A stretch of 64,000 nt of DNA, from IMG/VR virus record IMGVR_UViG_3300046051_000044, positions 1,353-65,352 of that record; one strand, 5' to 3'. How positions within the stretch are numbered: position 1 is the stretch's first letter; each line of letters begins with the position of its first letter. Below, one piece after another: positions 2,767 to 63,999 of the stretch. Source of the stretch: a virus. Both the position numbers and the translations under genes were made by a program. The notes below the pieces were generated by a model. That model searched no databases and was not told where the DNA came from. It worked only from the letters and a program-made list of their open reading frames with translations.

Positions 2767-4892
2767 CAACGAACTCCCGACGCTACGGCGAACACGTCCG
2801 AGAGCAGACGCAGCAAAACCAGCGCTGGCGTCGCGATCGCGTGGTCCGGCAGGCCATCGAGCACGGTAACAAGGCGATGGCCGTCGACGATGACGCCGAA
2901 GCCGCCCGCGTGCTGGCGTACGTCATCCTGCGGGGGCTCCGGAGCAGAGACACCCGCACGCTGGCCGACTACCACGAGCTGCTGTCCGACGATCCGGAGC
3001 TTCCGTGGCACTGGCACGAGCTCAAGTCGTTTGAGGACTCCCCCGAGACGTTCATCGCTCCGCTCGAGGATGGCGCTCGCGGATCGTTCGAAGCCTCGCA
3101 GGCCGCCGAGACCGTCCGGCGGGCATTCGAGGCCGCCGAGTCGATCGCGGCGCATCACGGCATCGTCGAGGATCAACTGCGAAACTACGCGACGGCGACC
3201 GGCTACTCGCTGCAGACGGGCATCCTGCACAAGACCTACGAGTTCGAACACGACAGCGAGATCAGCCTTGTCAGCCGGCGCAGTGGGCTGACGAAGACGC
3301 TCTACAACGGGAAGACCGGTGAAGGGAAGTCAACCTCGCTCGACGGCGAAGTCGAGGATCGGTTCAACAGCGGCTTCAAAGTGATCGACGTCCTCGACAC
3401 GGACGAGCTGGAGTCCGGCGTCTACGACATCCCCCAGCAGCAGGACGTCCTGCGGGACGTCCGGGAGGAGATGGGGCTGCCCGCCGACTTCACCGAGTCT
3501 GACGAGCATGACCGGCCGAACATCGAGATCCTCGTCCCGCTCACCCCGGGGTTAGACGGCGAAGAACTGCCCTTCGACACCGAGTCCGAGCAGTTCACTG
3601 CCCGTCCCTTCACGATCCCCGCGTCGAAGCTCTCGAAGCGCTCGCTGCTCGGCTTCCTGAAGTCAGTCGTGACGAAGCAGCAGGAGGTCGCGATCGGGCT
3701 GGCCTACGAGGAGGTGCGCGACGAAAAGGACGACTGGACGCTGAAGGACCTCGCGCAGAAGGTCCGGCGGCAGAAAGGGCTCGCTGACAACTTCAAGCAT
3801 CGCGTCACGCGGCTGCTGAAGTCGCTGCAGGACAAGGGCTTCATCCGCACGCAGAGCTGCCCGCACGCGCTCGACTGGGAGCGCATCTTCCGCGACATCG
3901 ATACAATCACGGTGTTCTCGACGAGCCTGATGCGCGAGCGCGAAGACAAGCTCATGGTCATCAGCTACCTGTTCCGAGCGCTCTACCATGAGCGGGTCGG
4001 GCTCGGCGAACTCCCCGACTGTGTCGGCGTCGGGCGCGAGCTGCACGAGATCGTCGGCCATCAGAACACGCGCTCGGACGACGAGCGGGAGAAGGCGATC
4101 CAAGAAGGCATCAAAACTGAACTCGGCTACATCCTGCGGAAGAACCGCCACGAGAGCCTCGAGCTGATCATGGACACGCAGGACATCCTCGACCTCGACA
4201 AGTCGATCAGAAAGCGGTTCAATCGCGCCATCACCTTCAGAACGCAGGACGAGTCCCTCGAGGAGCTGTTCAAGCAGGTCGCTGGCAACAAGGGAGCCTA
4301 CTACAACTACGGCGACGTCGTCTCGAAGCACTGGGAGCGCGGTGTCGGGACGGTCCTCGGGAACACTGGGCCGAACGCCGTCGGGAACACGCCGTTCCTC
4401 TCGCCGGTGAAGTTCGCGCCGCCGTCTTGGCACAACTTCGACAACGACGAAGACGATACCGGCTGGGAGAGCCGCGTGAAGTACATCGAGCGCGAAGAAC
4501 TCCGAGCGCACAGCTGGGACACGTCGCTCCCCGACGAGCTGGCGATCGGGATCTCCGAGGACGAGGAGCCAGAGGAAGGCGGCGAGGGCGACGTCGACGA
4601 GCGAGAGCAGGCGATGAACACGTTCGCCGAGGAGTGCATCCTCGACGAGCCTGACGGCGCTGTGCCGGCCGAGGACGTCCGCGAGGCGTTCAAGCAGTTC
4701 GCGAAGGAGAACGACTGGCCGGTCATCGACTCGCCGCAGTCCTTCGGGATGTGGTTCTCCCGAGCCGTCGACTACAACAACGACCGTTTCGGGGGCGTCC
4801 AGCACTACGAGACGATCACCCTGACGCCGGTCGGGGAGAGTTATGCCTTCGAGGACAGCGGCACAGAGGCAGCGGCAGGCCTGTCCGACTGA
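2763..4892 (+). CDS. P-loop ATPase, HerA/FtsK/VirB4-like fold, with C-terminal winged-helix-like domain
   Basis: Walker A NGKTGEGKS; Walker-B-like VGVGRELHE; LIMDTQ motif; the C-terminal FAEECI...VREAFKQFAKEN...SFG segment resembles the D5/primase-helicase C-terminal wHTH. Confidence 0.75.
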   Translation: MTTNSRRYGEHVREQTQQNQRWRRDRVVRQAIEHGNKAMAVDDDAEAARVLAYVILRGLRSRDTRTLADYHELLSDDPELPWHWHELKSFEDSPETFIAPLEDGARGSFEASQAAETVRRAFEAAESIAAHHGIVEDQLRNYATATGYSLQTGILHKTYEFEHDSEISLVSRRSGLTKTLYNGKTGEGKSTSLDGEVEDRFNSGFKVIDVLDTDELESGVYDIPQQQDVLRDVREEMGLPADFTESDEHDRPNIEILVPLTPGLDGEELPFDTESEQFTARPFTIPASKLSKRSLLGFLKSVVTKQQEVAIGLAYEEVRDEKDDWTLKDLAQKVRRQKGLADNFKHRVTRLLKSLQDKGFIRTQSCPHALDWERIFRDIDTITVFSTSLMREREDKLMVISYLFRALYHERVGLGELPDCVGVGRELHEIVGHQNTRSDDEREKAIQEGIKTELGYILRKNRHESLELIMDTQDILDLDKSIRKRFNRAITFRTQDESLEELFKQVAGNKGAYYNYGDVVSKHWERGVGTVLGNTGPNAVGNTPFLSPVKFAPPSWHNFDNDEDDTGWESRVKYIEREELRAHSWDTSLPDELAIGISEDEEPEEGGEGDVDEREQAMNTFAEECILDEPDGAVPAEDVREAFKQFAKENDWPVIDSPQSFGMWFSRAVDYNNDRFGGVQHYETITLTPVGESYAFEDSGTEAAAGLSD

Positions 4893-25924: not shown

Positions 25925-28900
25925 TTACAAGTGTGCGTTAAGCTCGTCGTAGATCGCTTCGGCCGTGTCGTCCGCGTCCTCGACGCCGTGGAATTCGTTG
26001 TTTTTCACGACGATCTGCGGGGTGGCCCCGCCGCCACCCGTGTCGGCGGTAACTTGCTCAAGCGCGCCGGAGAGTGCGCCCGCGAGGACGTCCTCGCCCT
26101 CGGCGTTCAGCGGGATGACGGCCTCGTCGTCGCCCGCCTCGCCGATGACGGCGGTCGTCGGTTCGGTGACGATGCCGCCGTGGGCGAAGCCCTTGGTCGC
26201 GCCACTCGGCCCGTCGACACCGTCGCCGTTGGCCGCGTCCCGACGGTTCCGGTCGGCCCGCGCCGCCGCTTGGGCCGCCGAGTCGGCCGCCGACTTCGCA
26301 CTCGACAGTGCGTCGGAGGCCTGACCCGCCGCGCTTTCGGCGGCGCCGATGATCGACGACGCGATGCTTTTGACGGTCGACAGCGCGCTCTCGAACGCCG
26401 AGACGACGTCGCCAAGGAACGATTCAGCCTCCGAGACGACATTGCTGCCGAACGTTGACCAGTCGTCCAAGAAGCCTGAGACAAACGACGACAGGGCCGA
26501 CCGGATGTCGGAGAACATCGTCCCGATGATCCCGCCGCTCCCGCCGCCGATGAGTTGCGACGCCAAGTTCGTGGCGGCGCTGATGACGGCGTCGATAAAG
26601 CTTGACTGGAAGAACGAGAGGAACGACGAGACCCACGACTCGGTGAAACTCCGAATCGCGCTAAACATCTCAGGGATGATCGACCCGCCGATGAGCGTCT
26701 GACGGAGGAATTCAAAGAATTCGATGAAGTTCTGTATGAACTCATTCCGTAGCCAGTCCAGAAAGCCACTGCCCCACTTCTGTGCGAAGTTGAGAATACC
26801 GTCGAACGTCCGTTTATAGAACTCGGCGACGGCCGTCCACGCCTCTTGCCAGTCACCCTGGATGACGTTAAGCGTGACGCGAATCGCCGTCGCAATCGCA
26901 TCCAGCGTCGTGTTCAGGAACGAGCCGATGGTATCAAAGGCGAATCTGACGATGGTGACGACTTCGTCGCCCCACGCCCGCCACAGTCCCGCGATGACCG
27001 TCAGCGCCGGGCCGATAATCGTCTTGATGACGTTCATCGTCGTCCGCAGGCGATCCGTCAGGACGTTGTAGGTCTCGACGACTTCGCGGAGAATCGCCGC
27101 GCCGTGCGTCTGCCACAGTTGGAGAATTGAGCCGAGAATCGGCTGGACGACGCTCGTTCGGAGTTCCGCAAGGACATTTCGAATGACTGTCAGGACTTGT
27201 GTGAAGATACGGCGGGCGTCCGCGACGAGGGGTTGGATCTGCGTAGTCCAGACCTGCCGGACGCGCGTGAGTTCCCGCTCGGTGACGGTCCGGATGTTGA
27301 GGATGTTGTTCGTCCAGACCGTATTCAGCGCCGTAATCGCGCCGGCGGCCGTCGTCGTTGGCGTCGTTAATCCTGCGATGGCGACGCCGACTTTTCCGAG
27401 CGTCTGGATCGTCGGCCGGCCCTGCGCGTCGAGATAGCCGAGTTTCTGCCCGAGCGTCTGGATCGGCTGGAGGAGTGGCCTGATTGCGCCGAGGACGGCC
27501 TGGCGGTGTTGCTGCCACAACTGCGCCATCTGGCCCAGTGCATCGCGGACGATGCCCTCGACTGTGCCGAGGGCATCGCGGAAGGGTTTCGGAAGTCGTT
27601 GCCGGAGCGTGCCGGGCACCTGGACGAACGCCGAGAGGCCTTGCTGGAGTGGTTGCTTGAGTGCCGCGAGCCCCTGCGAGACGGCTTGCCTCGCCCGGTC
27701 GAACATCAGCGAAAACATCCGGGCGAATGCCCCGATGTTGCCCTCAACGGCAGCGTTGAGCGCGGAGAGGCCGAGGGCGAGGACGTCCTTCATCGTCGCC
27801 ATCGCATCGCGGAGCGGTTGCGGGAGGCGCTTGGCCTGGGCTGCGACGGTGGTCTGGAGTCCGATGAGCCCCTGTTTGACGACGGGTTTGATCGCTGTGA
27901 GCCCGGTCGCGACGGCCTGCTTCGCCTGGCCGACCATCATCGTGAACTTCTGGGCGAACGCGTTGGCATTCCCCGCAATAAGTGCATTCAGTGCAGACAG
28001 CCCCTGCCCGAGTGCACCCTCTACCGCAGTCATGAATTGGGTGACAGAGGCGGTGACGCGCTGGCCGTGGGCCGCCCAGGCGGCTTCGAGTTGTCGGAGG
28101 GCTCCCCGAATCGCTTGGAAGGCCGACGTCATGCGCGCGATGAGTCGGTCGGTGACAAGGGCGATCACAGGTTCGAGCGCAGCTTCGACGCGAGCCTTGA
28201 ATCGGTCGAAGGCATCCCCCGCCGCCGCGACGGCCGGGCCGAAGACCTCGCGGAACGTGGTCGCCGTCGCCGCGGCCTGCTGGCGCGTGTAGAGAAGGAC
28301 GGCCTCCACCATCGTTCGGATCCCGGCGAAATTAGTCTTGAACGCCGCTGCCAGTCCGAGAACGGCACTCGTGAGAGCTGCCGCAGGCGCGAGGACAGCA
28401 CTCGTCGCGCCAGCCATCGCCGTCAGCGCCGGCGTGGCCGCAGAAATGGCCGGGTAGAGCCCAACGAACGCCGTTGCCAGCCCGCCGACGACGCCGACGA
28501 GGCCAGCGATGACGCCCGCCATGCCGTTGGTCGCAGAGTTGAGGTCAGCGAAGCGGTCGACCAGTCCACGGAGCGCGCGGATGGCGTCCGTCACATACGG
28601 CAAGAACACGTCGCCAGTCTGGATCGCAACCGCGAGAATCGACGATTTGAGTTGTTTGGCCTGCTTCTTGGCCGTATCCATCGCCGCCTCGAACTCGCGT
28701 TGGAGCGAGGCGTTCTCCTTGAAGGCCGTCTTGGAGGCATCCAGGTTCTGATTGAGCGTATCCATGTTCGTCGACAGGTTGGTCAACGCCTGTCGCGAGA
28801 ACGAAGTGAGCGTCGAGCGAAGCCCCTCGGCATTTACTCCCCCTTCCTTCATCGTCGTCGCCATCCGCTTGATGACCTCGACCGGGGAATTGTCCCGCAT

Positions 28901-29653
28901 CCGGCGGAACTCCTCGTTGGTCATCCCCAGCTCCGTGGCGAGTTCGTTTGCCTTCTTGGGATCCATCATCTCCTGGGCGATCCGGCGCAGCCCACGCCCG
29001 GCCTTGCTCGCCGACTGATAGGTCTCGTTCAGCGTCGCACTCAGAGCGGCGATCTCGGTCTGGGAGGCGCCGAGCGCATTCAGCGACGACGCCGAGTTCA
29101 TCATATTCGAGACGATCTCCGAACTCGACGTCGCGCTGATATTTGATAATTTATTGATGGATGAGCCCAGATTTTCCATCTTCGTGATGGGCGTATCGGT
29201 CAGCGTCGAGAGTTTCGCGAAGGACTCCCCGACTTGGTCGACGCTCATATCGGTCGCCTCAGACATCTTCACTGCCGTCCGAGTGAAGCTCTCAATGTTC
29301 TTCTCGGCGACGCCAAACCGCCCCGCCTCGGCGGCGAGGTTCGCAACCTCGTTCGCGGTCGCTGGGAGATCTTTTGAGAGTTGGATGATGTTTGACCGGA
29401 AGTCACTGGCGAAGGTCGAGGACGTGACCTTCTCCAATTCGACCATGTTAGACTCGAAGTCAGCGGCGGCTTTGGTCGCGCCCGCGAGCGCGCCGGCACT
29501 CAACGCTGCGAGTGCGCCGCCCGCCGCCCCGACGCCCGCCTTCAGTGAGTTTACCGACCGCTCGGCGGTCTGCATACTCTGGGCGAGCTGGCTGACGCCG
29601 TCGCTCTCGACTTTCGCTCGCAGGACGTATTCAGTCGTTCCGCCGAGTGGCAT
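25925..29653 (-). CDS. Tail tape measure protein (contains the protospacer of spacer 16)
   Basis: 1242 aa, Ala-rich and helical; N-terminal AADFESNMVELEKV core; C-terminal FAHGGIVTEPTTAVIGEAGDDEAVIPL. Confidence 0.92.
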   Translation of the reverse strand: MPLGGTTEYVLRAKVESDGVSQLAQSMQTAERSVNSLKAGVGAAGGALAALSAGALAGATKAAADFESNMVELEKVTSSTFASDFRSNIIQLSKDLPATANEVANLAAEAGRFGVAEKNIESFTRTAVKMSEATDMSVDQVGESFAKLSTLTDTPITKMENLGSSINKLSNISATSSSEIVSNMMNSASSLNALGASQTEIAALSATLNETYQSASKAGRGLRRIAQEMMDPKKANELATELGMTNEEFRRMRDNSPVEVIKRMATTMKEGGVNAEGLRSTLTSFSRQALTNLSTNMDTLNQNLDASKTAFKENASLQREFEAAMDTAKKQAKQLKSSILAVAIQTGDVFLPYVTDAIRALRGLVDRFADLNSATNGMAGVIAGLVGVVGGLATAFVGLYPAISAATPALTAMAGATSAVLAPAAALTSAVLGLAAAFKTNFAGIRTMVEAVLLYTRQQAAATATTFREVFGPAVAAAGDAFDRFKARVEAALEPVIALVTDRLIARMTSAFQAIRGALRQLEAAWAAHGQRVTASVTQFMTAVEGALGQGLSALNALIAGNANAFAQKFTMMVGQAKQAVATGLTAIKPVVKQGLIGLQTTVAAQAKRLPQPLRDAMATMKDVLALGLSALNAAVEGNIGAFARMFSLMFDRARQAVSQGLAALKQPLQQGLSAFVQVPGTLRQRLPKPFRDALGTVEGIVRDALGQMAQLWQQHRQAVLGAIRPLLQPIQTLGQKLGYLDAQGRPTIQTLGKVGVAIAGLTTPTTTAAGAITALNTVWTNNILNIRTVTERELTRVRQVWTTQIQPLVADARRIFTQVLTVIRNVLAELRTSVVQPILGSILQLWQTHGAAILREVVETYNVLTDRLRTTMNVIKTIIGPALTVIAGLWRAWGDEVVTIVRFAFDTIGSFLNTTLDAIATAIRVTLNVIQGDWQEAWTAVAEFYKRTFDGILNFAQKWGSGFLDWLRNEFIQNFIEFFEFLRQTLIGGSIIPEMFSAIRSFTESWVSSFLSFFQSSFIDAVISAATNLASQLIGGGSGGIIGTMFSDIRSALSSFVSGFLDDWSTFGSNVVSEAESFLGDVVSAFESALSTVKSIASSIIGAAESAAGQASDALSSAKSAADSAAQAAARADRNRRDAANGDGVDGPSGATKGFAHGGIVTEPTTAVIGEAGDDEAVIPLNAEGEDVLAGALSGALEQVTADTGGGGATPQIVVKNNEFHGVEDADDTAEAIYDELNAHL

Positions 29654-37012: not shown

Positions 37013-37849
37013 TCACGTCGGGAGTGTCAGTTGCTTCGGGCGGTCGACGACGGGGGCAAAGGTACATCGGCACCGGGCGTGCACCGGGACAAGACCTTTC
37101 GCCTCCTCGATCGGCATGACCGTCTCGTCGAGGCTTTCACAGATCGGGCAGGTGCGGTCGTCGTCGGTGGCGACGAACTCCGCCTCGCCGGCGACTTCGT
37201 CGACACCATACTCCTCGTAGCGGGCGAGCGTCGCGTCGGCGTGGCTGCGGATGATCTCCGTCCGGGCGATATCCGTGCTTCTCTTCTTCCCGATTTTGTC
37301 GACGCGGTCGGTGATGTTCCGAGCGATTGTCGTCGGGTTGTGGCCCTGTTGGAGGCCGTCCGTGAGTTCGCGGCTGGCCTGCTGGCCGACCGCACTCGTG
37401 ACGCCGTCCCACTCGGTGAGGTTGCGGGTGAACAGCGCCTGGAGTTGCTCTTGGTGCACCGGGCGGTTGAACGCCGCCTCAACCGACGCGCCGGCAGTGT
37501 CGACGCCCTGCGCGGCGAGTTTGGTATCGGCCTGTTCGAGACCGCGCTCGTAGGCCGCCCGAACGTACGTGTTCTCGCCGCGTGTGAACACCTCGACGCG
37601 GCCTTTCTCGGCTTGCTCTTCGAGCCAGTCGCGGAACTCCTCGACGCTTCGCCCGTCGCGGGCGAACGAGAGGTCATGCAGTGGGTCGGGCGCGCGAGCG
37701 GCCTCGGCGACCGACTGCCCCCGGAGCCCGAGTTTGTCTCGTGTGACGATGCCGCGGCGAATCTCGGCGTTGATCCGCGCCCAGATCCCGCGGAGTCGCT
37801 GGGTATACTCATCGCGGAGCGTGGTCGTCCGCGTCGGGTCGGTGCTCAT
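37013..37849 (-). CDS. MuF/SPP1 gp7-like minor head protein
   Basis: IARTEIIR, DDRTCPIC, PVHARCRC. Confidence 0.9.
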   Translation of the reverse strand: MSTDPTRTTTLRDEYTQRLRGIWARINAEIRRGIVTRDKLGLRGQSVAEAARAPDPLHDLSFARDGRSVEEFRDWLEEQAEKGRVEVFTRGENTYVRAAYERGLEQADTKLAAQGVDTAGASVEAAFNRPVHQEQLQALFTRNLTEWDGVTSAVGQQASRELTDGLQQGHNPTTIARNITDRVDKIGKKRSTDIARTEIIRSHADATLARYEEYGVDEVAGEAEFVATDDDRTCPICESLDETVMPIEEAKGLVPVHARCRCTFAPVVDRPKQLTLPT

Positions 37850-39732
37850 CTCCCGGGGGCGTCCCCGTCGCCGGCGTCGTCAGCAGTCCCGTCAGCGCCG
37901 TCACCGTCAGCGTCAGCATCGGCAGGCGGGCGGCGCTGGCGGTCCGTCGGGTCCATCGACGCGCGCTCGGCGTCGAGGTCCATCGGCTCGATATCGACGT
38001 CCGGCACGTCGGGGAGCTCGCCCGTCTCAAGATACGCTCGCCACTCGGCGGTGCCGTAGCCGGGGAGTTTGGTCCCGGCGCGCTGGATGACGGCGCCACG
38101 GTTGGCCCGGGTCTCCGCGAGGGCCGCCGCGGCAGCGGGGTCGTCGGGTGTCGCCGCGGCCGCAGCCGCCGCCTCGCCCTCGGCCGCACCGTCCTGGACG
38201 TCCTCGGGCATGACTTCGTCGGGATCCAGCCCAGGGACCATCCCGATGATCGCCTGCGGCGTCATGATGCGGCTGACCTGCCCGCCGGGCGCGCCCTGCT
38301 GGAGGCCTTTCATCAGATTGGCGAACTCCGCGCCGTCGAAGTGCTCCGACCGCAGTGGGGTGGTGTCGTCTGCCGGGCGGATCCGAAGGCGGACGTCCGG
38401 TACGTCGCTCGGGGCGCCGTAGAGGTCGGAGGACTCGGCGTCCGCTGGATGGGCGTGGCCGGTGAGGAACTCCGTGGCTTTCAGTTCGAGGAGTTGGCGG
38501 CACGTGGCTTCGAGGCGTCGGCGCGTCCGGGCGAGTTGGTCGTCGTAGTCCTCGCTTTGCTCGCTCGTCACGTCGCGGTTGATGTTCCCTTCGAAGCCGA
38601 CGCGATACAGCGGGACGAGCAGGCCGGCGACGACGTATTCAACTTGTTGCTGGATGAGGTCGACGATGTCCGGCACGTCGCCGCTGAGTTCCTGGATCTC
38701 GGGGTTCGTGTTCGTGACCGAGAGGCTATCCGGCGAGTTGGGATCCAGCCCCGCCAGCATCTGCTTGGCCTGCTCTTTGTCGTCGGTGTCGACGTTGGCG
38801 ACGATGTTGTTCCAGGCGGCGTTTTTGAGTCCCTGGTCGATGTCGTCGAGTTGCGTCCGCAGCGCCGTTGCCCGCGGGACGACGCTCGCCGACTCCGGGC
38901 GGCCGAAAATCGCGCCCGTGTCGGGGTCGTTGGCGAGCATCGTCACGTCATCCAGCGCGAACGGGATTTCCGAACGCTCCTTCGCACCGAAGATGTCGTC
39001 GTACTGGACGAACGCGGCCGTCTTGCCCGCGGCCGTCGTCGGGAGGTCCGAGCGGCCGGCGTCGCTCAACAGCCCGAGCGTGGGCGCGCGGCGGGGTTCG
39101 AGGCCAGGAGCGTCATCGTCGCTCCTGGCCGCGTCGCGCTGGAGTTGCTCTGCCGCGTCGTCCGGCCGGAGGAGGATGGCCTTCCCCTCGCGAGTGTACG
39201 CGGTTACGGTCTCGACTTTGAACGGCCGCAGGCCCAACAGGCGCTTTCGCTCGCGGGGATCGTCATAGACGTGTTCCGCCAGGCCCGTCCCGCGGCGGCC
39301 CAAGGCGTCGACGAGGAGGTGCTCGAGGAGGACGCGAAAATCCCGGTCGAAGCTATCGCCGGTGATGACCGACCGACCCAGCCAGTGCAGGAGGGCGTCC
39401 GACAGCGGCAGGCCGTGATAGCGTGCGTTGGGGTAGTCCTCCGGGACCGTTGGCTCGTCGTAGTTCTCGGGGTCGGCCTGCGGGTCCCGCGGCCGGACGA
39501 CGACGTCATAGCCGGGTTCGACGGCGTCCGAGACGTAGAGTCGCGTCGGGACGCGAATGAGTGGGTTGGCCTCGTATTCTTCGACCCACTCATCGATGTC
39601 CGCCGTGGCCGGCGTGTCCGTGCGTTGCTGCTGGCCGGAGTGGACGAACGGCTCGTCGCGCGCTTGGGGTGTCGCGCCGGCGTCGTCGCTATCGGCGGCG
39701 AGGCGTGCGCGGAGGGTATCGAACAGTCCCAT
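37846..39732 (-). CDS. Portal protein
   Basis: 628 aa, directly after terL and before MuF. Confidence 0.85.
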   Translation of the reverse strand: MGLFDTLRARLAADSDDAGATPQARDEPFVHSGQQQRTDTPATADIDEWVEEYEANPLIRVPTRLYVSDAVEPGYDVVVRPRDPQADPENYDEPTVPEDYPNARYHGLPLSDALLHWLGRSVITGDSFDRDFRVLLEHLLVDALGRRGTGLAEHVYDDPRERKRLLGLRPFKVETVTAYTREGKAILLRPDDAAEQLQRDAARSDDDAPGLEPRRAPTLGLLSDAGRSDLPTTAAGKTAAFVQYDDIFGAKERSEIPFALDDVTMLANDPDTGAIFGRPESASVVPRATALRTQLDDIDQGLKNAAWNNIVANVDTDDKEQAKQMLAGLDPNSPDSLSVTNTNPEIQELSGDVPDIVDLIQQQVEYVVAGLLVPLYRVGFEGNINRDVTSEQSEDYDDQLARTRRRLEATCRQLLELKATEFLTGHAHPADAESSDLYGAPSDVPDVRLRIRPADDTTPLRSEHFDGAEFANLMKGLQQGAPGGQVSRIMTPQAIIGMVPGLDPDEVMPEDVQDGAAEGEAAAAAAATPDDPAAAAALAETRANRGAVIQRAGTKLPGYGTAEWRAYLETGELPDVPDVDIEPMDLDAERASMDPTDRQRRPPADADADGDGADGTADDAGDGDAPGR

Positions 39733-39759: not shown

Positions 39760-41304
39760 TCAGAGTTCGAGTGCGAACGCGGTGTCCGGGTCGACGCTGT
39801 CGTCGGGGTCGGCATCCCGGACCCAGATGCTCATGAGTGCCGCGTCAAGGTGATCTGGGCTCCGGCCGAGGCGCTGTTTGACATCGTCCTTGGGTGTCGC
39901 CGAAAGGACCTTCGCGCCGTCGTCGTCCGTGCCACGCTTGCCGAGCTCCTTTTCCTCCCACGTGACGGTCCGGGCGGCGATCTTCGCCTGTTCGTAGAGG
40001 TTACTGTCCCGGATGACGCCGCCAGCAGCGAGATAGTCGGCGAAGAGAGCCAAACTCTCTCCCCACCGGCGGTCGTACGTCGTCTCGGCGGCCGCGACGG
40101 CGGAGTTCTTGAACCGGTCGACCGTACCGAAGCGATCGTCAAGGCCGTCCGCAAGCCCCGACCCCTCGCCGACGGCGTCGACGGCGATCGGTGGCGTCCG
40201 CCACTCGCGGATGATGCCCGCGAGATCCTGCTCTTGTTGAGTGTGGTCGGTGCCCTGGCGGGCGAAGTGAGTAACGAGGACATCGCCATGTGGCCCAGTA
40301 GCGACCGTGTCGTCACCGCTTCGGGCGACGTCAATTCCGAGAGCCTCAGGGAAATCACAGGGAGGCGTGACGTCGGGGTCGTACTGTGTTTCGACGAGGT
40401 CGGGCGACAGCGGGCGATGTGTACTCGCGCCGGCCGGCGGCATCACGCCGGCGCGGCGTCTGTACCACCGCTCGTCAAGATCGTCGCGACGCTCGTGGGC
40501 TGTCCGGGCCCGTTCACAGCCAGGCCAGTCCTCGCCGACGTAACTCTCCCAGTCCTGTTTGATCTTCCAGAGCGTCGCAAGGCCATCGATCGGCTCGCCG
40601 TCGACGGCGCTCGTCTCAACATGGACGTTATGGCTCTCGAACGATGAGAGCCGAATGACGTTCCACGTCGGGTCCTCGTAGAGGCCCCACAGCGAATTTG
40701 TCTCGTCACGCGGCGGGTTGGCAATCGCGACGATGCGGTCGCGGTTGTCGCTCACCAGCGAGTCCATCGCCTCGAAGGTCGCCTCTGTGACATCGTCCTT
40801 GTCAGCCTCTTCGATGATGCCGAGGATATACCCGCCGTGGACGCCTTCGAGTTCGCCGGCGTCTTTTGGCGACGCCGCCTCAAGATACTGGTGCGGCTCG
40901 CCGTCAATCTCGATGCGCGGCGGGGAGTGCTTATACGTCCCGGGGAGGCCCACCCCACCTAGGGCGTTGTCGTGGAGGCTCTCAACCGGTTTGCAAAACG
41001 TCCGCTTGAGTTTGGGGTAGGTCCCACTCGTCGCGAGGACGCTTGCCGGGTAGTGGGCAGCCAGCCAGACGTTCGCGATGGCCGCGAGGATATAGGACTT
41101 GCCGAGCCCGTTCGCAGTCTGGACGAGGAGTTTCTCATTTCGGACGACGGCCCGGCAGATCCGCCGCTGCGGCTTGGTGACCGTGATGCCTAGGTAGTCC
41201 TCAATAGCATCCTCAAGCCACTGCTCGTCCTGCCGGCGTGCGCGTTCGGCGTAGTGCTCGCCCAGTTCCCGAATGGACGAGATGCCGTCAGTGGTCGTGC
41301 TCAT
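39760..41304 (-). CDS. terL: Terminase large subunit
   Basis: Walker A TANGLGKS, Walker B IIEEAD, nuclease GIDVARSGDD and SPDHLDA; probable start 41304. Confidence 0.92.
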   Translation of the reverse strand: MSTTTDGISSIRELGEHYAERARRQDEQWLEDAIEDYLGITVTKPQRRICRAVVRNEKLLVQTANGLGKSYILAAIANVWLAAHYPASVLATSGTYPKLKRTFCKPVESLHDNALGGVGLPGTYKHSPPRIEIDGEPHQYLEAASPKDAGELEGVHGGYILGIIEEADKDDVTEATFEAMDSLVSDNRDRIVAIANPPRDETNSLWGLYEDPTWNVIRLSSFESHNVHVETSAVDGEPIDGLATLWKIKQDWESYVGEDWPGCERARTAHERRDDLDERWYRRRAGVMPPAGASTHRPLSPDLVETQYDPDVTPPCDFPEALGIDVARSGDDTVATGPHGDVLVTHFARQGTDHTQQEQDLAGIIREWRTPPIAVDAVGEGSGLADGLDDRFGTVDRFKNSAVAAAETTYDRRWGESLALFADYLAAGGVIRDSNLYEQAKIAARTVTWEEKELGKRGTDDDGAKVLSATPKDDVKQRLGRSPDHLDAALMSIWVRDADPDDSVDPDTAFALEL

Positions 41305-41704
41305 AGTCAAGGGCATCAAGAACTTGCCGAGTCCGCTCGGACGGGGTGTAGCCAGTGATGAACACGCGTGTGCGGGCACGCCCCCACGGAATGCGGTCGC
41401 CGTGTGCCGGCGTCGGGAGGGAGAGGTCAATGATCTCGCCGCCGTGGGACAGGAACCAGTGCGTTCCTTCGGACGTCTTGTCAACATCCGTCCACGACAG
41501 GCAGTTCACAGCCAGGTCGCTCTCCCGGCCGCCATCGGCATGCCAATACGCCTCCGCGGCGACGTAGCACGACCCAAACAGCGCATCGTCGGCCGTGGCG
41601 TAGCGCCCTTTCCGAATGTCGGGGTGGTCGCGGATGTACGCTCGGATCCGGCGGGCCGCGTCGTCAGGCTCTACGAAGACCGTCCAGTCGCCAGTCGTGC
41701 TCAT
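41288..41704 (-). CDS. Hypothetical protein between terS and terL
   Basis: 138 aa; GSCYVAAEAYWH...THWFL. Confidence 0.7.
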   Translation of the reverse strand: MSTTGDWTVFVEPDDAARRIRAYIRDHPDIRKGRYATADDALFGSCYVAAEAYWHADGGRESDLAVNCLSWTDVDKTSEGTHWFLSHGGEIIDLSLPTPAHGDRIPWGRARTRVFITGYTPSERTRQVLDALDYEHDH

Positions 41705-41713
41705 GCGAATGCG

Positions 41714-42346
41714 TTAGGATTGCGGGTCGTGGCCGTGGGCGGCCTTGAGGCCCGCCAGCAGTTCCTCGTGGATATTGACGTTCACGGTCGGTCCGTCGTC
41801 ATCGGCACCGAGGAGATCCATGTCCTTGAGCCACTGCCGACAGCGGGTTGAGATACGGTGCTCGGCTTTCGCAACCGCCGTCTCAACGTATTCGAAATAC
41901 TCCTCGCCCTGGGGCGATCGGCGCTCGCTCCGGTCGATCAACGGGTGGCCGGCGTCGAGTGAGGCCGGCTTTTCCGCCGCCCAGTCGTCGGCCTTGATGA
42001 CTGTCTTGTGGATGTCAACCGCACACCGGAACAGCATCAGCTCGTCGCCGGTCGTCGGCTCCTCGCTCTGGACGCGAGTGTACTTCTGGTAATATCCGTC
42101 GAAGATGTCGTCGATGAGGCGCTGCCCCGTCTCGTCGCGGCGCTGATAGTAGGTGTTGTGGTCCGCGTAGAGTTCGTGCGAGGCGCCGAAGTCATTGGCA
42201 GCGTGGCTCTCGCCGTCCGGGGACGTCCCACGGTGGTGCTTACATTTCCCGTCCGCGAAGTCCGTACCCCATCCAGCGGCGAGGCCACATTCGCCGTTGT
42301 TGCCACCGTAGTCCCCACACTCCTCCTGATAGTTGCGCCCCGCCAT
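41714..42346 (-). CDS. terS: Terminase small subunit
   Basis: N-terminal C...C...GWGT...CKHHRG motif, helical body, position upstream of terL. Confidence 0.75.
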   Translation of the reverse strand: MAGRNYQEECGDYGGNNGECGLAAGWGTDFADGKCKHHRGTSPDGESHAANDFGASHELYADHNTYYQRRDETGQRLIDDIFDGYYQKYTRVQSEEPTTGDELMLFRCAVDIHKTVIKADDWAAEKPASLDAGHPLIDRSERRSPQGEEYFEYVETAVAKAEHRISTRCRQWLKDMDLLGADDDGPTVNVNIHEELLAGLKAAHGHDPQS

Positions 42347-48110: not shown

Positions 48111-48345
48111 CTAGTGTCGATTGCGGCGGATGACGGGAGCCGCCCAGCCCCGAGGGAGGCACGCCATCAAATTCTGATGACGGGGAGATTCACTCCGTCA
48201 CCTTCTGACGGCCGCCGATCGCGACGCTTCGGCGACGCTTCGGTCGACGCACCTCACGCTACCGCTACTACACTAATACTACTACACTTGCACTAGAGAC
48301 AACTCTAGTGGAGAGGTGGCGGCTTCCCGACCCCGTGTGAGGGCA

Positions 48346-48978
48346 TCAGCGACCCCCTCCAGCGCGGTTCTCCGTCATCAAATTCTGATGGAGGTCATTC
48401 ATCGTCAAATCGTCCGCGTCAAGTTCGAGGCGGCTCTGCCCTCCGCCGAGCGACCCGCTGGCGAACGTGATGCCATCAAACGGCTTGATATCACTCGATC
48501 CGTTCCCGAGATCGGCGTCGTGTCCGTCGGCGGCCCGCTTCATCGCATCGAGGACCGTGCCGTTGTGAAGTCCACCGCCCAGCGAGGACTCGGCTTCGTC
48601 CCGCGTCAGGCAGGCCTTCCCGTCGTTGTTCTTCCCCTTGTTCCAGAGGACTTGCCGGAGGTGCATTGCTCGCTCGTCGGGGGTGGCGCTGCTCCCGTCC
48701 TCGACGACGAACATCTCAAACTTCTCGTCGTGACTGGCGACGGTGTCTTCAACACTACTGAGTCGATCTGCGATCGGCTCCATCTCTTCGGGCGTCCACC
48801 CGCTGAATTCGTCCTCGTCCCCTGCAAGCGCGACGGCGAGTGTGTCGATCCGGCGATGGGCGGCCTCGGCGTGCGCCTTTGTTTCGTTGAGTTCCTTCCG
48901 CAGCTCCCGAACGGTCTGGATCAACTCGTCGCGAGTCATCGCGTCCGGATCCGACACGCGGTGCATGTCGGAGCTCAT
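48346..48978 (-). CDS. Coiled-coil / wHTH-like hypothetical protein
   Basis: N-terminal heptads; 210 aa. Confidence 0.65.
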   Translation of the reverse strand: MSSDMHRVSDPDAMTRDELIQTVRELRKELNETKAHAEAAHRRIDTLAVALAGDEDEFSGWTPEEMEPIADRLSSVEDTVASHDEKFEMFVVEDGSSATPDERAMHLRQVLWNKGKNNDGKACLTRDEAESSLGGGLHNGTVLDAMKRAADGHDADLGNGSSDIKPFDGITFASGSLGGGQSRLELDADDLTMNDLHQNLMTENRAGGGR

Positions 48979-49583
48979 GGGGCACACCTCACGTAGTCCG
49001 GCAGTGGTTGATACACGTCGCCTTGCCGGCGGAGTTTCTCGATTGCGTGCTCTGCTTTGCTCCGGTCCATGCCGAGGGCCTGCGCTCGGTTGAGAATGGA
49101 CTCGACCGGAGCTCCCTCATCGTGCTCCTGCTCTAGTTCGGAGATAAGGTCCGCAACGATTTCGACGCGGTCGTCGGCGTCGAGCGGCCCGTCGTAGATG
49201 TCTGGACTGAGCGACTCTGCCGCCTCTTGGTTGGCCTCTTCAGCGATGTCTTCGGGCGTGACGCCTGCGCCATAATCCTCGCGGATCTGCTTTGCTGACT
49301 GCCCGATCTCCTCCGAAACCTGCTGGCTTAGTTCGTTGAGTTCTTGCGAGATATTCTCAACAACGTACTGAATGGTCTCGTCGATCTCGGCAACCCCGAT
49401 GGTCTTGTAAAACTCATCATCGTAAAGCCGTTCCAGTTTCTCGTGGCACGTTGGGCAGACGTCGACGAGATTATGGCCGGCATCGCTCCCGTTGAACCGC
49501 CGCGGGACGATATGGTGGTTCTCGAGGATGTCGTCACTCTCATCGCAGAAGTAACAGTCCTCGCGGGGGTGGGGCCCACTCAT
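48975..49583 (-). CDS. HNH endonuclease fused to MCM-like C-terminal winged helix
   Basis: CYFC...HHIVPRRFNG...NLVDVCPTCH; C-terminal EGAPVESILNRAQALGMDRSKAEHAIEKLRRQGDVYQP. Confidence 0.75.
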   Translation of the reverse strand: MSGPHPREDCYFCDESDDILENHHIVPRRFNGSDAGHNLVDVCPTCHEKLERLYDDEFYKTIGVAEIDETIQYVVENISQELNELSQQVSEEIGQSAKQIREDYGAGVTPEDIAEEANQEAAESLSPDIYDGPLDADDRVEIVADLISELEQEHDEGAPVESILNRAQALGMDRSKAEHAIEKLRRQGDVYQPLPDYVRCAP

Positions 49584-49916
49584 CGCCCACCCACCCGTTT
49601 TCGGCAGCGAACGCACTCGTCGTCGACGATGCCGCCCCCACACGTCGGGCAGTAGTCGGCGGTGATGCCGCGGACGGGCGTCACGCCGACCACCCCCTTA
49701 TCGATGTGTAGGAGAAACAGTTATCTGCTGCACCCTCTAGTATCCAGTACGGGCTACTGCCCGCGCGGTTGCGTGCGTACATGGTCAGATCGCGCGACCC
49801 TCGGTGCGAGTGCGCAAACACTCGCGCCCTTTTCAGGACGAGACGAAGGCCGTTAGCGTATGCTATGGCGTCGCGTGCATATGAAGGTTCGCAAACGTCA
49901 GAGCGACGGAGTCTTT

Positions 49917-57987: not shown

Positions 57988-59496
57988 CTAGTGGCGCAAT
58001 TCGCGCCTCAGTACTTCGAGTTCGTTACGGATGATCTGCCGGATGTCGTCTTCATCAAGCGTATCCAACTCGTGAGGCCTGTCGTCCTCAAGCTCTTCCC
58101 GGGTAACACGACGAATCGTGTCTTCGATCTCGGGCGACTCTCCCGCAATATATTTCTCCCACGTTAGACCGAGTTCCTTTCTCCGCTCATTGTGCTTCTC
58201 ATAGAATTCTCGGCCTACTTTGATGTTTGCTCGATCCCGGCTCATCGGGTAGTTGTATTGAGTGCCTCGAGACAGTCGGAGCAGACGTTCTCTAGTCGCC
58301 ACTCATCTTCGCTATCAGCGTCGACGTTGATTTGGCGGTAGTGAACTGGCTGGGCGTCTGCTTCATGTCCACACTCTGCAACAGCATTCGAGCCGGGGAC
58401 GTGCATCATCCCGTCGTTCCCCGTCACCCAGTGTTCGGCGTCTGCTGGCGGCTGCGGATGCATTTCAGATCGCCTCCAGACGGCCTTCGGGATACGTGTA
58501 AACGGTCGTGCTGTCGTGGTTGCGAAGGTTCTTCGCAAAGACTGCCCCGAAGTCCTGCCCTCGACTGGCCTTCATGGATGCATCTTTTTCCATCACACCG
58601 ACCGTCTGGCTGTCCAACTCGTCGGCGAACACGATCTTAATGACTCGATCGTCGTTCGGATACGAGCTGTTGCACTTGGCAACGGTCTTGTCAATGGCCT
58701 CGATGTAGTATTCGTCTGCTCGCTCGTCGGTAACGCCCACCACGTAGGCTTCGCCGTCATCGCTTCCTTGTTCGACATCGTAGACGCGCTGGCCATCAGC
58801 GAACGCGTCGCCTGAGGTGTTCTGCCTCATGTGTATCCCCATGTATCCCACCGGCTTATAATTTGGGATACATGGGGATATACGGGGAGGTATCGGTCGT
58901 CTATCTTTCAGCGCGGAGAGAACCTCGGCGTTTACCGCGGAGAAGATGTCCTCGATCAAACCTCGCCGGGACGACACGGAGGAGGCGACTAGATATCCGG
59001 GCCGTGTTGCACGAGCCACTCGGAATTCGAGAGTTGCTCGTGATACGAGTTGATGTGATACGTGACCTGCGATCGGTCACGGCCGTCCTCTCCAAACCCG
59101 AGTTCTGCTGCAATCTCGCTGTAAGAGTGGCCCTGCTCCCGGAGCGCGACCACGTTCGCACGCTGCTCAGGGACGCCGTGCTCGCGAAGCTGTGCTGCCC
59201 GCTCGCGCCAGTCTTCAGTTGCCGGCTCACTCATCAGTATCTCCCTCCTGGTGAAGCTCGTGGACTTCCGTGACGCCAGTCAGTTCGGCCTCGCAGCGCG
59301 CACACCGGGGCATCTCCCGCTTTGGGATGCCCCCAGTCACAGGGACGAGATCGCCGCAGTCGGGACAGCCAAGGATCGTCGTTGCCTGCGGGAGCAGCTC
59401 CCGGAGGGACTCGGCGGCTTCACCTCCGAATCCCATATCGACTGTCTCGCCGGTGATGAATTCGACGCGGAACGTGGTGGTATGGTCGTCGGTCAT
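57988..59496 (-). other. Cluster of small ORFs including an HTH protein (58989-59234)
   Basis: 57988-58245, 58242-58463, 58465-58830, 58989-59234 (GHSYSEIAAELG...SQVTYHI), 59227-59496. Confidence 0.6.
58834..58880. promoter_or_regulatory. 17-bp perfect inverted repeat flanking a TATA box
   Basis: TATCCCCATGTATCCCA (58834-50) - CCGGCTTATAATT - TGGGATACATGGGGATA (58864-80), 4 nt upstream of the ATG at 58830. Confidence 0.8.
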
Positions 59497-61167: not shown

Positions 61168-63999
61168 TCAGCGGGGGTGGTAGGTGGTCGGATCGGCGGC
61201 GTGGTCGCCGTCCTCTCTCCGGAGCGCGCCTTGGTCGACCAAGGCCGACAGCCAGTCCTGCATGGCTCGGCGCGACACGTCAAGCTTGGGATCGCCGCTG
61301 GCGGCCGCGAGATCCTGGGCTTCCTTGACGGACACGCCCGCGCCGGCGTCGGCCGCGCTGCGGAGGTGGTCGTAGAACCGCGCGGCCGTCGCCGGCACGT
61401 CAAGGTCGTCCGGCGCGGGAATCCCTCCGTCGTCCCCGGCCGGGTGGTCGCCGGCGTCCCGATCTCCGCCGCCGACCGCGTCGGCGGGGACCGTCATGTC
61501 GGTCCCGATCCGGAGCGACAGGTCGGCCAAGTCGTCGGCCCCCTCGGGAACCTCGAGGATCTCGGCGTGCGGATCGACGGCCCCCCCGTCAAGAGTGATC
61601 TCGGGGATGATCGGCTTCTTGACCGTCCTGTCCCCGCCCGACGGGTAGGAGTCGGCGTCGGTGAACACCGCTCCGGCGTCCTCGAAACGGGCGTGTTCGG
61701 TGCCACTCCCGTCGCGAAGGACGACGTCGCCCGTTTCCTCGTCTTTGATCCAGGCGTTCGACCGACCGCCGGGGCGCGTCATGGCCTCGCCGTCGACCCG
61801 CAAATCCCGCGGAGAGGTGTAGTAGCGCACCTCGCCATCGACGGGATGATCCGACCGGCAGAACGCCGGGTCCGCGCGAAGCGTGTCGGCGACGTTCGCC
61901 GCGTCGTCGGGGCGGGCGAGGACCACGGCCTGCCGGCCCTCGGTCGCCGCCTGGAGGACGTGCTGGGCGGTCATGCCGGCCTTGCTCCGCCCGGTCGAGT
62001 GCTCGGCTTCGAGCCGCGCGACGTCGCCGCCGGTCAGCTGCTCTACCAGGGCGGGCGCGTGCTGCTCCTCGGGGGGCGCGGGGCGGACGAGCGCGTCGGG
62101 GTCGTCGCCACTCGCGTCAAGGATTTCGACGTCGAGCCCGGCCCAGGCCAGCGGCGCGTAGGCGTCCCACAGCAGCAGGCCGTGGCCCGCGCCGCCGGCG
62201 CTTTGGTTCTCCCCGACGGTCGCGAGCGTCGCCCGCGGCGACGTTGCTCGGAGTTCCGGCCCTCCGTCGTGCTCTCGGATCTCGAGCAGGCCGTCGGGGA
62301 CGTGCTGCATGACCTGCCGCCACAGATCCCCGTCGGTCCCGAGGCGATCGGTGACGTCGTCGGGCGTCTCGTCCAGCGCGCTCACGCGGCGCACGACGGC
62401 GGGCCGGGCGTCGCCGAGGGGAACGAAGCCGTCCGGATTGCCAGTCCGACAGGCGGTATCGTAGATGCCTTGGACGGCCGCGCGTTCGACGGCGTCGGTG
62501 ATGTCGAGGCCGTCGCCCTGATCGCCCGCGGCGCCCGCGCCGTAGAAATGCGACTGGGCTTTCTGCTCCTCGGGGGACGACGGCCGTGTCCCATACCGTT
62601 TGACAGAGCGCTGTTTCAGCGCCTCGAGCTCGTCGTCGGTCATGCCGGGGTCGCCGGAGACGTCCGCGCGGGCCTCGGCGATCGGGGGGAAGGCGTCGAC
62701 CTTGTAGGAGTGGGTGAGCTCGTCGTCGGCGTCGCGGGTCCGCATGTAGAACTTGTACGGGCTCATATTGACGAGGTCCTCCCAGTCGACGCCCGGGGAG
62801 TGTTGCGCGGCGATCAGGCGCGCGTCGTCCTGCCCGCCGGGGTTGTAGGAGACGAACGTCTCGCATTGGTTTTCGATCGCTTTCTGCACCTGCTCGGGGA
62901 GCTGGTTCGACGGGTTCTGACAGGCGAGCGTCAGCGGGAAGTCGAACGCGCGCGCTTCCGACAGGATCCCGTGAATGTTCGACTCCTCGGTAACGATCGA
63001 GTCGAACTCGTCACAGACCACGTAAAAGGGAGGCGCGTCGTCGGCCGCCCGGACGGCGACCCACGCCCGGCGGATCAGCGCCGTCGCGAACAGCCGCTTT
63101 TCCGTCTCGCCCGACTGTGGCGCGTTCCGGACCACGAGGACCGTCCCGTCTTCGACGGCGTCTTGGATGGATACCGTCGACTCCCGGGCGCTAATCAGGT
63201 TCCGGATCGCGTCGTTCTGAAGCCATTGTTCCAGGCGTCCGGCCAGCGGCTCCAGCTCGCCCTCGTCCATCTCACTAATCTGCTCGGCGGTATCAGCGAT
63301 AAAGTGGATTCGCTCCTCGGTCATCCACTCGGCGAACCGATCCCGATTTTCCGGGGCCGTGCAACAGCAGGCGAGGTCGAGTAGCGTACAGGTCCGCCCG
63401 GAGCGGGCGAACCCGCGGATCAGCGTCCGGAGGACCCGATCCATCCGCGCGCCCCAATAGTTATCCTGGCCGCCGGCCTGTGCGGCCATCGCGACCAGGT
63501 CGTCCGCGAGCGCCTCGACGGCCGTGGAAAAGGCGCGAGAGCCCTGCTCGGCGTCGCCCGGCACCTCGAGGAAGTTAAACCGAACCTGCTGCTCGTAGTC
63601 GTCGGAGAGGTCGACAAAGACGAAGTCCTCCTCGTCGCGGTCTTCGGGCCACTCTCGAACGAACGCGTCGGCGTCCGTCCCCTTCGGGTCGAAGATCAGC
63701 GCGCCGTGGCCGCGCTGCATGATCTGTGAAACGAAGTTCGTGAGAAAGGTCGTCTTCCCGACGCCGGTCCCCCCGCCGACGAATTGGTGGGTCTTGAGGA
63801 TCGACGGCTCCACGCCAGCTTCGATCCCGTGGCGACTCCCGAAGCCATACCAGTAGGGGTCGCCGGGCGTCCCCTCGTCAAGCATGGCGACTTGCTGCAC
63901 GTCTCGGTCGGCGCCGGCGACCTCTGCCGCATCGAAGTCGAACCGCGGTGTGCCGGGCGGGATCCCCTCGCCCGGGCGGGAGAGCGACCACCGGAGCTT
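61168..63999 (-). CDS. VirD4/TrwB/TraD-like type IV coupling ATPase, 5'-partial
   Basis: Walker A GGTGVGKT; ALIFDPKG; Walker B VVCDEF; EARAFDFPLTLACQ; frame stays open to the window end. Confidence 0.85.
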   Translation of the reverse strand, partial: KLRWSLSRPGEGIPPGTPRFDFDAAEVAGADRDVQQVAMLDEGTPGDPYWYGFGSRHGIEAGVEPSILKTHQFVGGGTGVGKTTFLTNFVSQIMQRGHGALIFDPKGTDADAFVREWPEDRDEEDFVFVDLSDDYEQQVRFNFLEVPGDAEQGSRAFSTAVEALADDLVAMAAQAGGQDNYWGARMDRVLRTLIRGFARSGRTCTLLDLACCCTAPENRDRFAEWMTEERIHFIADTAEQISEMDEGELEPLAGRLEQWLQNDAIRNLISARESTVSIQDAVEDGTVLVVRNAPQSGETEKRLFATALIRRAWVAVRAADDAPPFYVVCDEFDSIVTEESNIHGILSEARAFDFPLTLACQNPSNQLPEQVQKAIENQCETFVSYNPGGQDDARLIAAQHSPGVDWEDLVNMSPYKFYMRTRDADDELTHSYKVDAFPPIAEARADVSGDPGMTDDELEALKQRSVKRYGTRPSSPEEQKAQSHFYGAGAAGDQGDGLDITDAVERAAVQGIYDTACRTGNPDGFVPLGDARPAVVRRVSALDETPDDVTDRLGTDGDLWRQVMQHVPDGLLEIREHDGGPELRATSPRATLATVGENQSAGGAGHGLLLWDAYAPLAWAGLDVEILDASGDDPDALVRPAPPEEQHAPALVEQLTGGDVARLEAEHSTGRSKAGMTAQHVLQAATEGRQAVVLARPDDAANVADTLRADPAFCRSDHPVDGEVRYYTSPRDLRVDGEAMTRPGGRSNAWIKDEETGDVVLRDGSGTEHARFEDAGAVFTDADSYPSGGDRTVKKPIIPEITLDGGAVDPHAEILEVPEGADDLADLSLRIGTDMTVPADAVGGGDRDAGDHPAGDDGGIPAPDDLDVPATAARFYDHLRSAADAGAGVSVKEAQDLAAASGDPKLDVSRRAMQDWLSALVDQGALRREDGDHAADPTTYHPR

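Follow-up and report, generated by a model that had tools for sequence, protein, structure and literature searches.

A stretch of 64,000 nucleotides, referred to here as the window (positions 1,353-65,352 of the IMG/VR virus record IMGVR_UViG_3300046051_000044), derives from a tailed virus of salt-loving archaea and encodes a two-domain protein, P0001, in which an apparently intact HNH nuclease is followed by a winged helix (WH) of the type that terminates the MCM helicase of haloarchaea. This HNH-MCM-WH fusion is genuine and conserved, and word-index and pattern searches recovered about 30 proteins of this architecture, all of them from hypersaline metagenomes or viral contigs. It is unreported: no paper found in the literature deals with HNH-MCM-WH fusions or with PF21120, the WH family, outside MCM. 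We tentatively suggest a role that is possible, if short of probable, namely that P0001 is a nuclease of the replication module which uses its MCM-type WH to dock, by protein contact, on the initiation machinery of the host, where Orc1/Cdc6 would be the most likely partner.

The HNH nuclease and MCM-type winged helix of P0001

A sequence-only reading of this DNA had proposed the fusion of an HNH nuclease to the C-terminal winged helix of MCM, and comparison against Pfam bears this out, both domains scoring above their family cut-offs. Residues 10-60 match the HNH_5 (PF14279; Bitscore: 31.9; cut-off: 27.5) and HNH (PF01844; Bitscore: 28.0; cut-off: 21.4) families, while residues 138-199 match MCM_WH_arc (PF21120; Bitscore: 34.1; cut-off: 26.1) over profile positions 1-63 of 63. 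The C-terminus furthermore corresponds to positions 618-679 of 683 in PHROG 10371, annotated as 'DNA helicase'. The AAA+ P-loop, OB and lid domains of MCM (PF00493, PF17207 and PF17855) were not found in P0001 by Pfam, nor was any dedicated DNA-binding module of the NUMOD, IENR1 or helix-turn-helix (HTH) type, leaving the WH as the sole second domain. Judged from its sequence, P0001 can thus be assigned to the HNH and MCM_WH_arc families and is not an MCM helicase.

The catalytic His and Asn residues, the metal-binding His and the two CxxC pairs are all present in the HNH domain, and C10, C13, H23, H24, N38, C43, C46 and H47 are invariant across the 18 homologues in a full-length alignment; by its residues the domain is predicted to be catalytically intact. 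In a sequence search of the PDB the N-terminus matches the HNH domain of IscB (e-value: 9.6e-7) and the McrA-type structure 6ghc. The best sequence and fold matches to residues 10-60, the HNH domains of IscB and Cas9 and the Geobacter HNH nicking endonuclease Gme (4H9D), share the beta-beta-alpha-metal fold and the zinc-binding CxxC pairs, but these enzymes are RNA-guided or stand-alone, whereas the HNH domain of P0001 bears the WH of a replication protein.

The last ~65 amino acids, which the sequence-only reading had likened to the haloarchaeal MCM C-terminus, indeed contain the motif it had named (GAPVESILNRAQALGMDRSKAEHAIEKLRRQGDVYQP) and share 50-61% amino acid identity with verified MCMs. 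These full-length proteins are among the nearest of the 349 matches, besides the orthologue of P0001 itself, obtained with phmmer when residues 128-202 were compared against 1.84 billion representative proteins. Four of them were checked by Pfam, and all four contain OB, P-loop, lid and WH domains, with inteins in two. A word-index search with the WH region had returned no longer proteins, which were found by the exhaustive HMMER search. Scored with the same PF21120 model, verified haloarchaeal MCMs reach 20.8-36.2 bits, against 34.1 bits for P0001. As a single sequence, the P0001 C-terminus matches the MCM WH structures 8x7t and 2m45 in the PDB, and a profile of the 18 homologues places MCM WHs first among the solved WHs (2ma3: 2.6e-7; 8x7t: 3.5e-6; 2m45 of Sso MCM: 9e-6), followed by that of archaeal RPA32 (1.5e-3). 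The domain is therefore of the MCM family, rather than the generic winged HTH for which the sequence-only reading had allowed. It shares only 35% amino acid identity with the WH of the MCM of the cultured virus HATV-3, and resembles the WHs of the intein-bearing MCMs, which we take to be of the cellular type, more closely than this viral one.

A model of P0001 produced by AlphaFold 2 (AF2) from the alignment of 18 homologues has a predicted local distance difference test (pLDDT) value above 90 over WH residues ~140-200 and of about 80 in the HNH domain. In the model the WH has three helices (residues 136-153, 160-169, 174-187), after which comes a strand (197-200), in agreement with a compact three-helix WH that has a short C-terminal hairpin and is of the truncated, wingless type. 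The helical linker between the two domains is missing from the short (146-158 amino acids) family members in the alignment. When the whole two-domain model was compared by Foldseek, the WH of Mth MCM (2ma3) ranked first (e-value: 0.018) and the Geobacter HNH nickase second; the e-values are weak (0.018-0.03) and the result adds little to the sequence evidence. Overall, the WH of P0001 has the sequence family, consensus and predicted helix-strand order of the archaeal MCM C-terminal WH (PF21120; 2M45 of S. solfataricus, 2MA3 of M. thermautotrophicus and residues 633-702 of Hfx. volcanii MCM), which, however, follows an AAA+ helicase, whereas that of P0001 follows an HNH domain and helical linker in a virus record where no MCM domain was found.

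The MCM character of the WH also extends to its pattern of conservation. The WHs of the HNH fusions, of a family of ~170 amino acid proteins and of other small proteins share the MCM consensus GAP.E.VL.RA...GM.RSKAEHEIEKL...GEVYEP..DHLRT, and the column-entropy profiles of these non-MCM groups correlate with that of the MCM WH (r = 0.73-0.78). The conserved columns include charged positions that are probably at the surface. Such a pattern is what would be expected if the domain keeps the role it has in MCM.

Distribution of the fusion and reuse of the winged helix

The HNH-WH fusions range from 146 to 214 amino acids in length, with one of about 400, and are 30-91% identical to P0001; searches of cultured phage records and of one-per-species prokaryote genomes returned none. 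In a tree of the HNH domain, 18 WH-fused proteins form one group with a Shimodaira-Hasegawa-like approximate likelihood ratio test (SH-aLRT) support of 83, and eight others are scattered. The existence of an all-WH group of this size indicates that the fusion has been retained through long divergence. A seeming whole-length match on plasmid pNPA70 of Natrinema pallidum (H15) was rejected, as it is a truncated MCM comprising AAA, lid and WH domains rather than an HNH fusion.

The same WH is found in proteins with a range of N-termini. A set of 163 WH-bearing proteins, made up of the 150 best matches and the earlier homologues and sorted by N-terminal similarity, includes long MCMs (44/163), MCM fragments (25/163), HNH proteins (21/163) and open reading frames (ORFs) consisting of the WH only (18/163), as well as 34 clusters of the ~170 amino acid family, whose N-terminal domain is without known function, and about 21 proteins with other N-termini, a zinc ribbon among them. 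The ~170 amino acid family (P0026, P0031 and 32 further clusters) is encoded on haloarchaeal plasmids and integrated elements. One of its members, on a Natronorubrum daqingense contig which is apparently a 55-kb plasmid, bears the UniRef name 'MCM C-terminal domain-containing protein'. Two members in integrated elements adjoin integrase or ParA genes; of the copies at L060:8001-8510 and L062:2561-3100, one overlaps an integrase gene at its end and another is located upstream of ParA. The C-terminal WH of the Natronorubrum daqingense protein SIS07837.1 (P0026; about 170 amino acids) shares 57% identity with that of P0001 and is likewise carried on mobile DNA; proteins of this type differ from P0001 in their unrelated N-terminal domain of ~100 amino acids, which is no nuclease, and adjoin integrase or ParA genes. 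Judged by sequence, the MCM WH is thus a module that mobile elements of haloarchaea reuse widely. In one contig (L003:1-4169) the MCM gene itself looks split, with an ORF of more than 1141 amino acids, probably intein-bearing, ending 264 bp before a 159 amino acid ORF which holds the lid and WH, the latter being among the nearest to the WH of P0001.

HNH modules of the P0001 type are also joined to other C-termini, including Cys-rich domains and a different WH-like domain. A stretch of another metagenomic contig (L059:134-2089) contains three tandem HNH genes, coding for 258, 129 and 200 amino acids, and the third has a C-terminal part which aligns to the WH and may represent one. Among the relatives with a Cys-rich tail is gp64 of Haloarcula tailed virus 3 (HATV-3; MZ334527; Pyrstoviridae), the HNH module of which is the same as that of P0001 (59% identity). 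This protein and its relatives in two further viruses (L008 and L075) share the signature CYFC...HHIVPRR...NLV..CP.CH.KLE.LYD.RFY with P0001, but they end in a Cys-rich region, and in each case a viral MCM gene follows two or three genes downstream, whereas P0001 ends in the MCM WH with no MCM nearby. In all three viruses the gene order is HNH, a protein of 133-176 amino acids with a coiled-coil signal in two of the three, and MCM, the MCMs themselves being only 31-34% identical pairwise. Synteny maintained across such divergent MCMs speaks for stability of the module and against sporadic insertion; the P0001-type HNH lineage is a long-standing part of the MCM replication modules of haloviruses.

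By contrast with these modules, no MCM gene accompanies the WH-fused HNH in the handful of larger contexts at hand. Domain searches for the MCM P-loop (PF00493), Cdc6_C, PCNA_N and PolB found none of them in the 80.9-kb record that contains the window (G000), which is estimated to be 77% complete, and MCM, Cdc6_C, PCNA_N and PolB were likewise not found in a second record with an HNH-WH gene (G001; 44.9 kb, terminal repeats, 100% complete). A simple deletion that converted an HNH...MCM arrangement into HNH-WH was rejected as the sole origin of the fusion, since the coiled-coil gene follows the WH in the window but lies between HNH and MCM in the modules.

Only one close relative was found, a virus with about 91% DNA identity (L002) which also carries the HNH-WH gene. 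Between the two, the ratio of non-synonymous to synonymous substitutions (dN/dS) in this gene is 0.21, and it is under purifying selection. The synonymous divergence is unevenly distributed, dS falling from 1.43 in the HNH codons to 0.10 across the linker and 0.02 over the WH, the WH being the best-conserved part with 97% identity. A patch of ~180 nt with high divergence lies inside the HNH core (49345-49524, minus strand), and in it two 90-nt segments show 66% (49435-49524) and 87% identity, while the flanks are 94-100% identical to L002. The changes are mostly synonymous and the patch looks like an allele replacement by recombination.

Possible docking on the host initiator and competing explanations

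In the mechanism that we envisage, a virus with its own MCM would carry the HNH nuclease with a Cys-rich tail two or three genes upstream of the helicase gene, and in a virus without MCM the HNH nuclease would itself bear a C-terminal WH taken from a haloarchaeal MCM. The WH would most likely not bind DNA but dock on the partner of MCM's own WH, presumably the host Orc1/Cdc6 initiator, and so put the nuclease at initiator-bound DNA. The DNA could then be opened or nicked, such that viral replication would start with host enzymes, or alternatively the host origins could be damaged or blocked. That P0001 would nick rather than cut both strands is our inference. The functions put forward in the sequence-only reading, namely an MCM mimic, a nuclease aimed at origins and the recruitment of host machinery, are treated here as hypotheses. 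The MCM-type conservation of the WH, the connection of this HNH lineage to viral MCM modules and the absence of MCM, Orc1, PCNA and PolB from the two sizeable carrier records speak in their favour, as does, weakly, the predicted complex described below.

Several published observations are consistent with a protein-docking function of the WH. The archaeal MCM WH is truncated and wingless, DNA binding by MCM is independent of it, and together with the linker it damps the ATPase and helicase activities of MCM, probably through docking on the AAA+ tier, as modelled (PMC4357721). In Sulfolobus the WH contacts Orc1-1 bound to the origin recognition box (ORB) during helicase recruitment (PMC12141716), and the WH of RPA32 is a protein-protein interaction domain (PMC11686378). 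Furthermore, small archaeal tailed viruses with only PCNA, Orc1/Cdc6 or MCM are thought to recruit the host replisome via these single mimic components (bioRxiv 10.1101/2025.02.15.638363). The role suggested for P0001 has in common with them that a viral copy of a host part acts as a hook, but unlike them P0001 would keep only the 65 amino acid interaction domain of MCM, joined to a nuclease.

A complex was predicted from the WH alignment and the Halobacterium salinarum Orc protein (Swiss-Prot CDC67_HALSA), a stand-in from another host, alongside three controls. It scored 0.42, against 0.00 for the best control. This is a weak pass: of 80 solved complexes 58 reach the mark applied to such scores, as do 2 of 110 mismatched pairs, and those that reach it at 0.60 or lower comprise only seven of the 80 solved complexes together with both passing mismatches. 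Between runs at least 0% of the contacts agree, and the pLDDT of the partner is at least 75. The predicted complex may be taken as weak support for docking of the WH on Orc1, and its score may reflect likeness to solved assemblies that combine the origin recognition complex (ORC) with MCM.

P0001 offers a concrete and testable handle on the poorly understood question of how archaeal viruses that encode neither a polymerase nor a helicase nor an initiator gain control of replication in their hosts, being short and easily expressed, with separable domains. The WH ends at least 34 clusters of the ~170 amino acid family and some twenty other small proteins of mobile DNA, which suggests a general, undescribed route to the archaeal initiation machinery. 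In its broadest form, the idea would be that many haloarchaeal viruses, plasmids and integrated elements use the MCM WH as a portable 'initiator-docking tag' on their effectors (HNH nucleases, the ~170 amino acid family and zinc ribbons), plugging these into origins bound by Orc1/Cdc6, and that the HNH-WH proteins are origin-directed nickases which start the replication of viruses lacking replication genes with host enzymes, or disable host origins; taken whole, we hold this to be rather improbable. Archaeal licensing is a simpler model of the eukaryotic ORC-MCM system. Were the WH a specific binder of Orc1, or of MCM, it would provide a tool to probe or perturb archaeal origin licensing.

A number of observations weigh against docking on the host initiator as the role of the WH. 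The contact between WH and Orc1/Cdc6 that the sequence-only reading had ascribed to archaea at large is documented for Sulfolobus only, and no haloarchaeal data were found in the literature. One of the three runs of the predicted complex scored 0.00 with no interface reported. ORB-like boxes (searched with the consensus TCCASTGGAAAC, at most two mismatches) are not enriched in the window, with a single match against 5.4 expected by chance. The association of the WH fusion with an absence of MCM derives from two virus records together with 16 kb of a single 27-kb contig. Outside the closest relatives, the family shows no conservation of the genes that neighbour HNH-WH, and the order in the window, with HNH-WH followed by the coiled-coil protein, fits poorly with a simple module deletion. 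Finally, the MCM-like conservation of the WH could partly stem from recent or repeated capture of the domain rather than from a common partner. A WH tree (65 columns, 163 rows) is without resolution, the WHs of mobile elements being interleaved with those of MCMs, such that single and repeated capture cannot be told apart.

The best-surviving alternative, unlikely in our estimation, is that the gene encodes a selfish HNH endonuclease of the free-standing homing type, or one involved in inter-virus competition, and that the WH is a DNA-binding or stabilising add-on acquired from an MCM gene nearby and unconnected to the Orc1 and MCM proteins. Homing HNH genes typically adjoin conserved replication genes, and this has been counted in favour of such an origin, as have the several unrelated C-termini to which the same HNH is joined, the three tandem HNH genes, the neighbours that differ between loci and the recombination-like patch in the HNH core of viruses that are otherwise nearly identical. 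The G+C content at third codon positions (GC3) of the HNH-WH gene (0.71) is furthermore lower than that of most of its neighbours. A DNA-binding add-on is, however, at odds with the wingless nature of the archaeal MCM WH and its dispensability for DNA binding by MCM (PMC4357721), and with the MCM-type conservation pattern and consensus that the WH retains. The synteny of HNH, coiled-coil and MCM genes across strongly diverged MCMs and the persistence of the all-WH group of 18 HNH proteins likewise speak against sporadic insertion, and no presence/absence polymorphism was seen, the gene being present in the one close relative compared.

Improbable to a greater degree is that the host MCM is the target, with the WH and linker docking in trans on its AAA+ tier and either inhibiting the helicase or tethering the nuclease to forks or to MCM during loading. 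The damping of MCM by its own WH and linker, modelled on the AAA+ domain (PMC4357721), provides a precedent. In many of the mobile-element proteins the WH is still preceded by the linker motif of MCM (R-D-R-I-K-N-I-K), and the carrier viruses are without an MCM of their own. In P0001, however, this basic motif is largely lost (DDRVEIVAD), and the WH of the host MCM would be a competitor in cis.

There is very little to recommend P0001 as a packaging factor which aids the terminase in the cutting of concatemers, in the manner of gp74 of HK97, with an incidental WH. HNH cofactors of the terminase are common in tailed phages, gp74 is likewise a small HNH protein of a tailed virus, and the TerS, TerL and portal genes are located downstream of the HNH-WH gene on the same strand. 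Unlike that of gp74, the P0001 gene does not adjoin the terminase or portal genes, being located upstream of TerS, from which about 6.6 kb and no fewer than nine genes separate it, in an early region of small genes, and its product has the extra MCM-derived domain; its nearest HNH relatives are found in MCM replication modules and not beside terminases. Lastly, a decaying remnant, formed by accidental in-frame fusion after loss of a viral MCM and carrying a WH without selected function, is scarcely credible and was already disfavoured, for while related viruses do have HNH genes upstream of MCM and the linker motif GTSK.QR.R of MCM persists in some of the family, about 30 members diverged down to 30% identity have an intact WH with a conserved MCM-like consensus, this WH is the best-conserved segment between close relatives, and the gene order is unlike that left by a simple deletion.

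Genomic context of the fusion gene

The immediate surroundings of the P0001 gene are summarised with the domain boundaries in Table 1. A longer start at GTG 49643 is unlikely, as it would add a basic, non-halophilic stretch to the protein.

Table 1. Positions in the window of the HNH-WH gene, its encoded domains, the adjoining genes and the tailed-virus module
Feature	Position	Strand	Description
HNH-MCM-WH gene (P0001)	48975-49583	-	202 amino acid ORF from ATG at 49583 to TGA at 48975, stop codon included
HNH (beta-beta-alpha-metal) nuclease domain	49404-49556	-	Residues 10-60; zinc site CxxC...CxxC
Helical linker	49179-49403	-	Residues 61-135; helices 67-104 and 110-124 (AF2 model, alignment)
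MCM-type C-terminal WH	48978-49178	-	Residues 136-202
Micro-ORF	49580-49684	-	34 amino acid zinc ribbon, CPxC...CxxC; TGA and the HNH-WH ATG overlap as ATGA
210 amino acid gene	48346-48978	-	Downstream; ATG overlaps the stop of the HNH-WH gene (ATGA); winged HTH, likely N-terminal coiled coil (by eye)
TerS	41714-42346	-	Tailed-virus module
TerL	39760-41487	-	Tailed-virus module
Portal	37846-39732	-	Tailed-virus module
Mu-F-like protein	37013-37849	-	Tailed-virus module
Tape measure protein	25925-29653	-	Tailed-virus module

The early region that harbors the HNH-WH gene contains small zinc-finger and HTH genes. The micro-ORF is 100% identical in L002, as are the 300 bp upstream of the HNH-WH gene, and consequently the comparison yields no substitutions from which coding could be judged. 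The 210 amino acid protein has no Pfam or PHROG family at cut-off and no close relative was found for it in IMG/VR, while its Atlas structure resembles the winged helices of MarR, RepA_N and RepL with template modelling (TM) scores of 0.30-0.32 only. The Atlas gave nothing informative for a 478 amino acid early protein. In a further contig with an HNH-WH gene (L058), a gene for 207 amino acids (4143-4766) directly follows it, and the product shows weak similarity (z = 3.5) to the 210 amino acid protein.

A scan for sigma-70 promoters and terminators, which is ill-suited to archaea, returned nothing. Two copies of a near-palindromic 18-mer (CGYCATCAAATTCTGATG) are located at 48162-48179 and 48373-48390, around the 3′ end of the 210 amino acid gene, and a 20-nt inverted repeat with 95% complementarity and a 13-nt spacer occupies a stretch of lower G+C content at 58831-58883. 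The 18-mer pair and the inverted repeat are possible operator or origin elements.

Towards the end of the window (61168-63900, minus strand) and beyond it (L005:521-8070), proteins of 1351 and 1185 amino acids are encoded which contain TrwB/TraG-type and AAA_10/VirB4-like ATPase domains. The record thus also has conjugation-like genes and may represent a plasmid-provirus composite. On the opposite strand, a gene coding for a PD-(D/E)XK nuclease (17660-18358, plus strand) is located at the end of the tail module.

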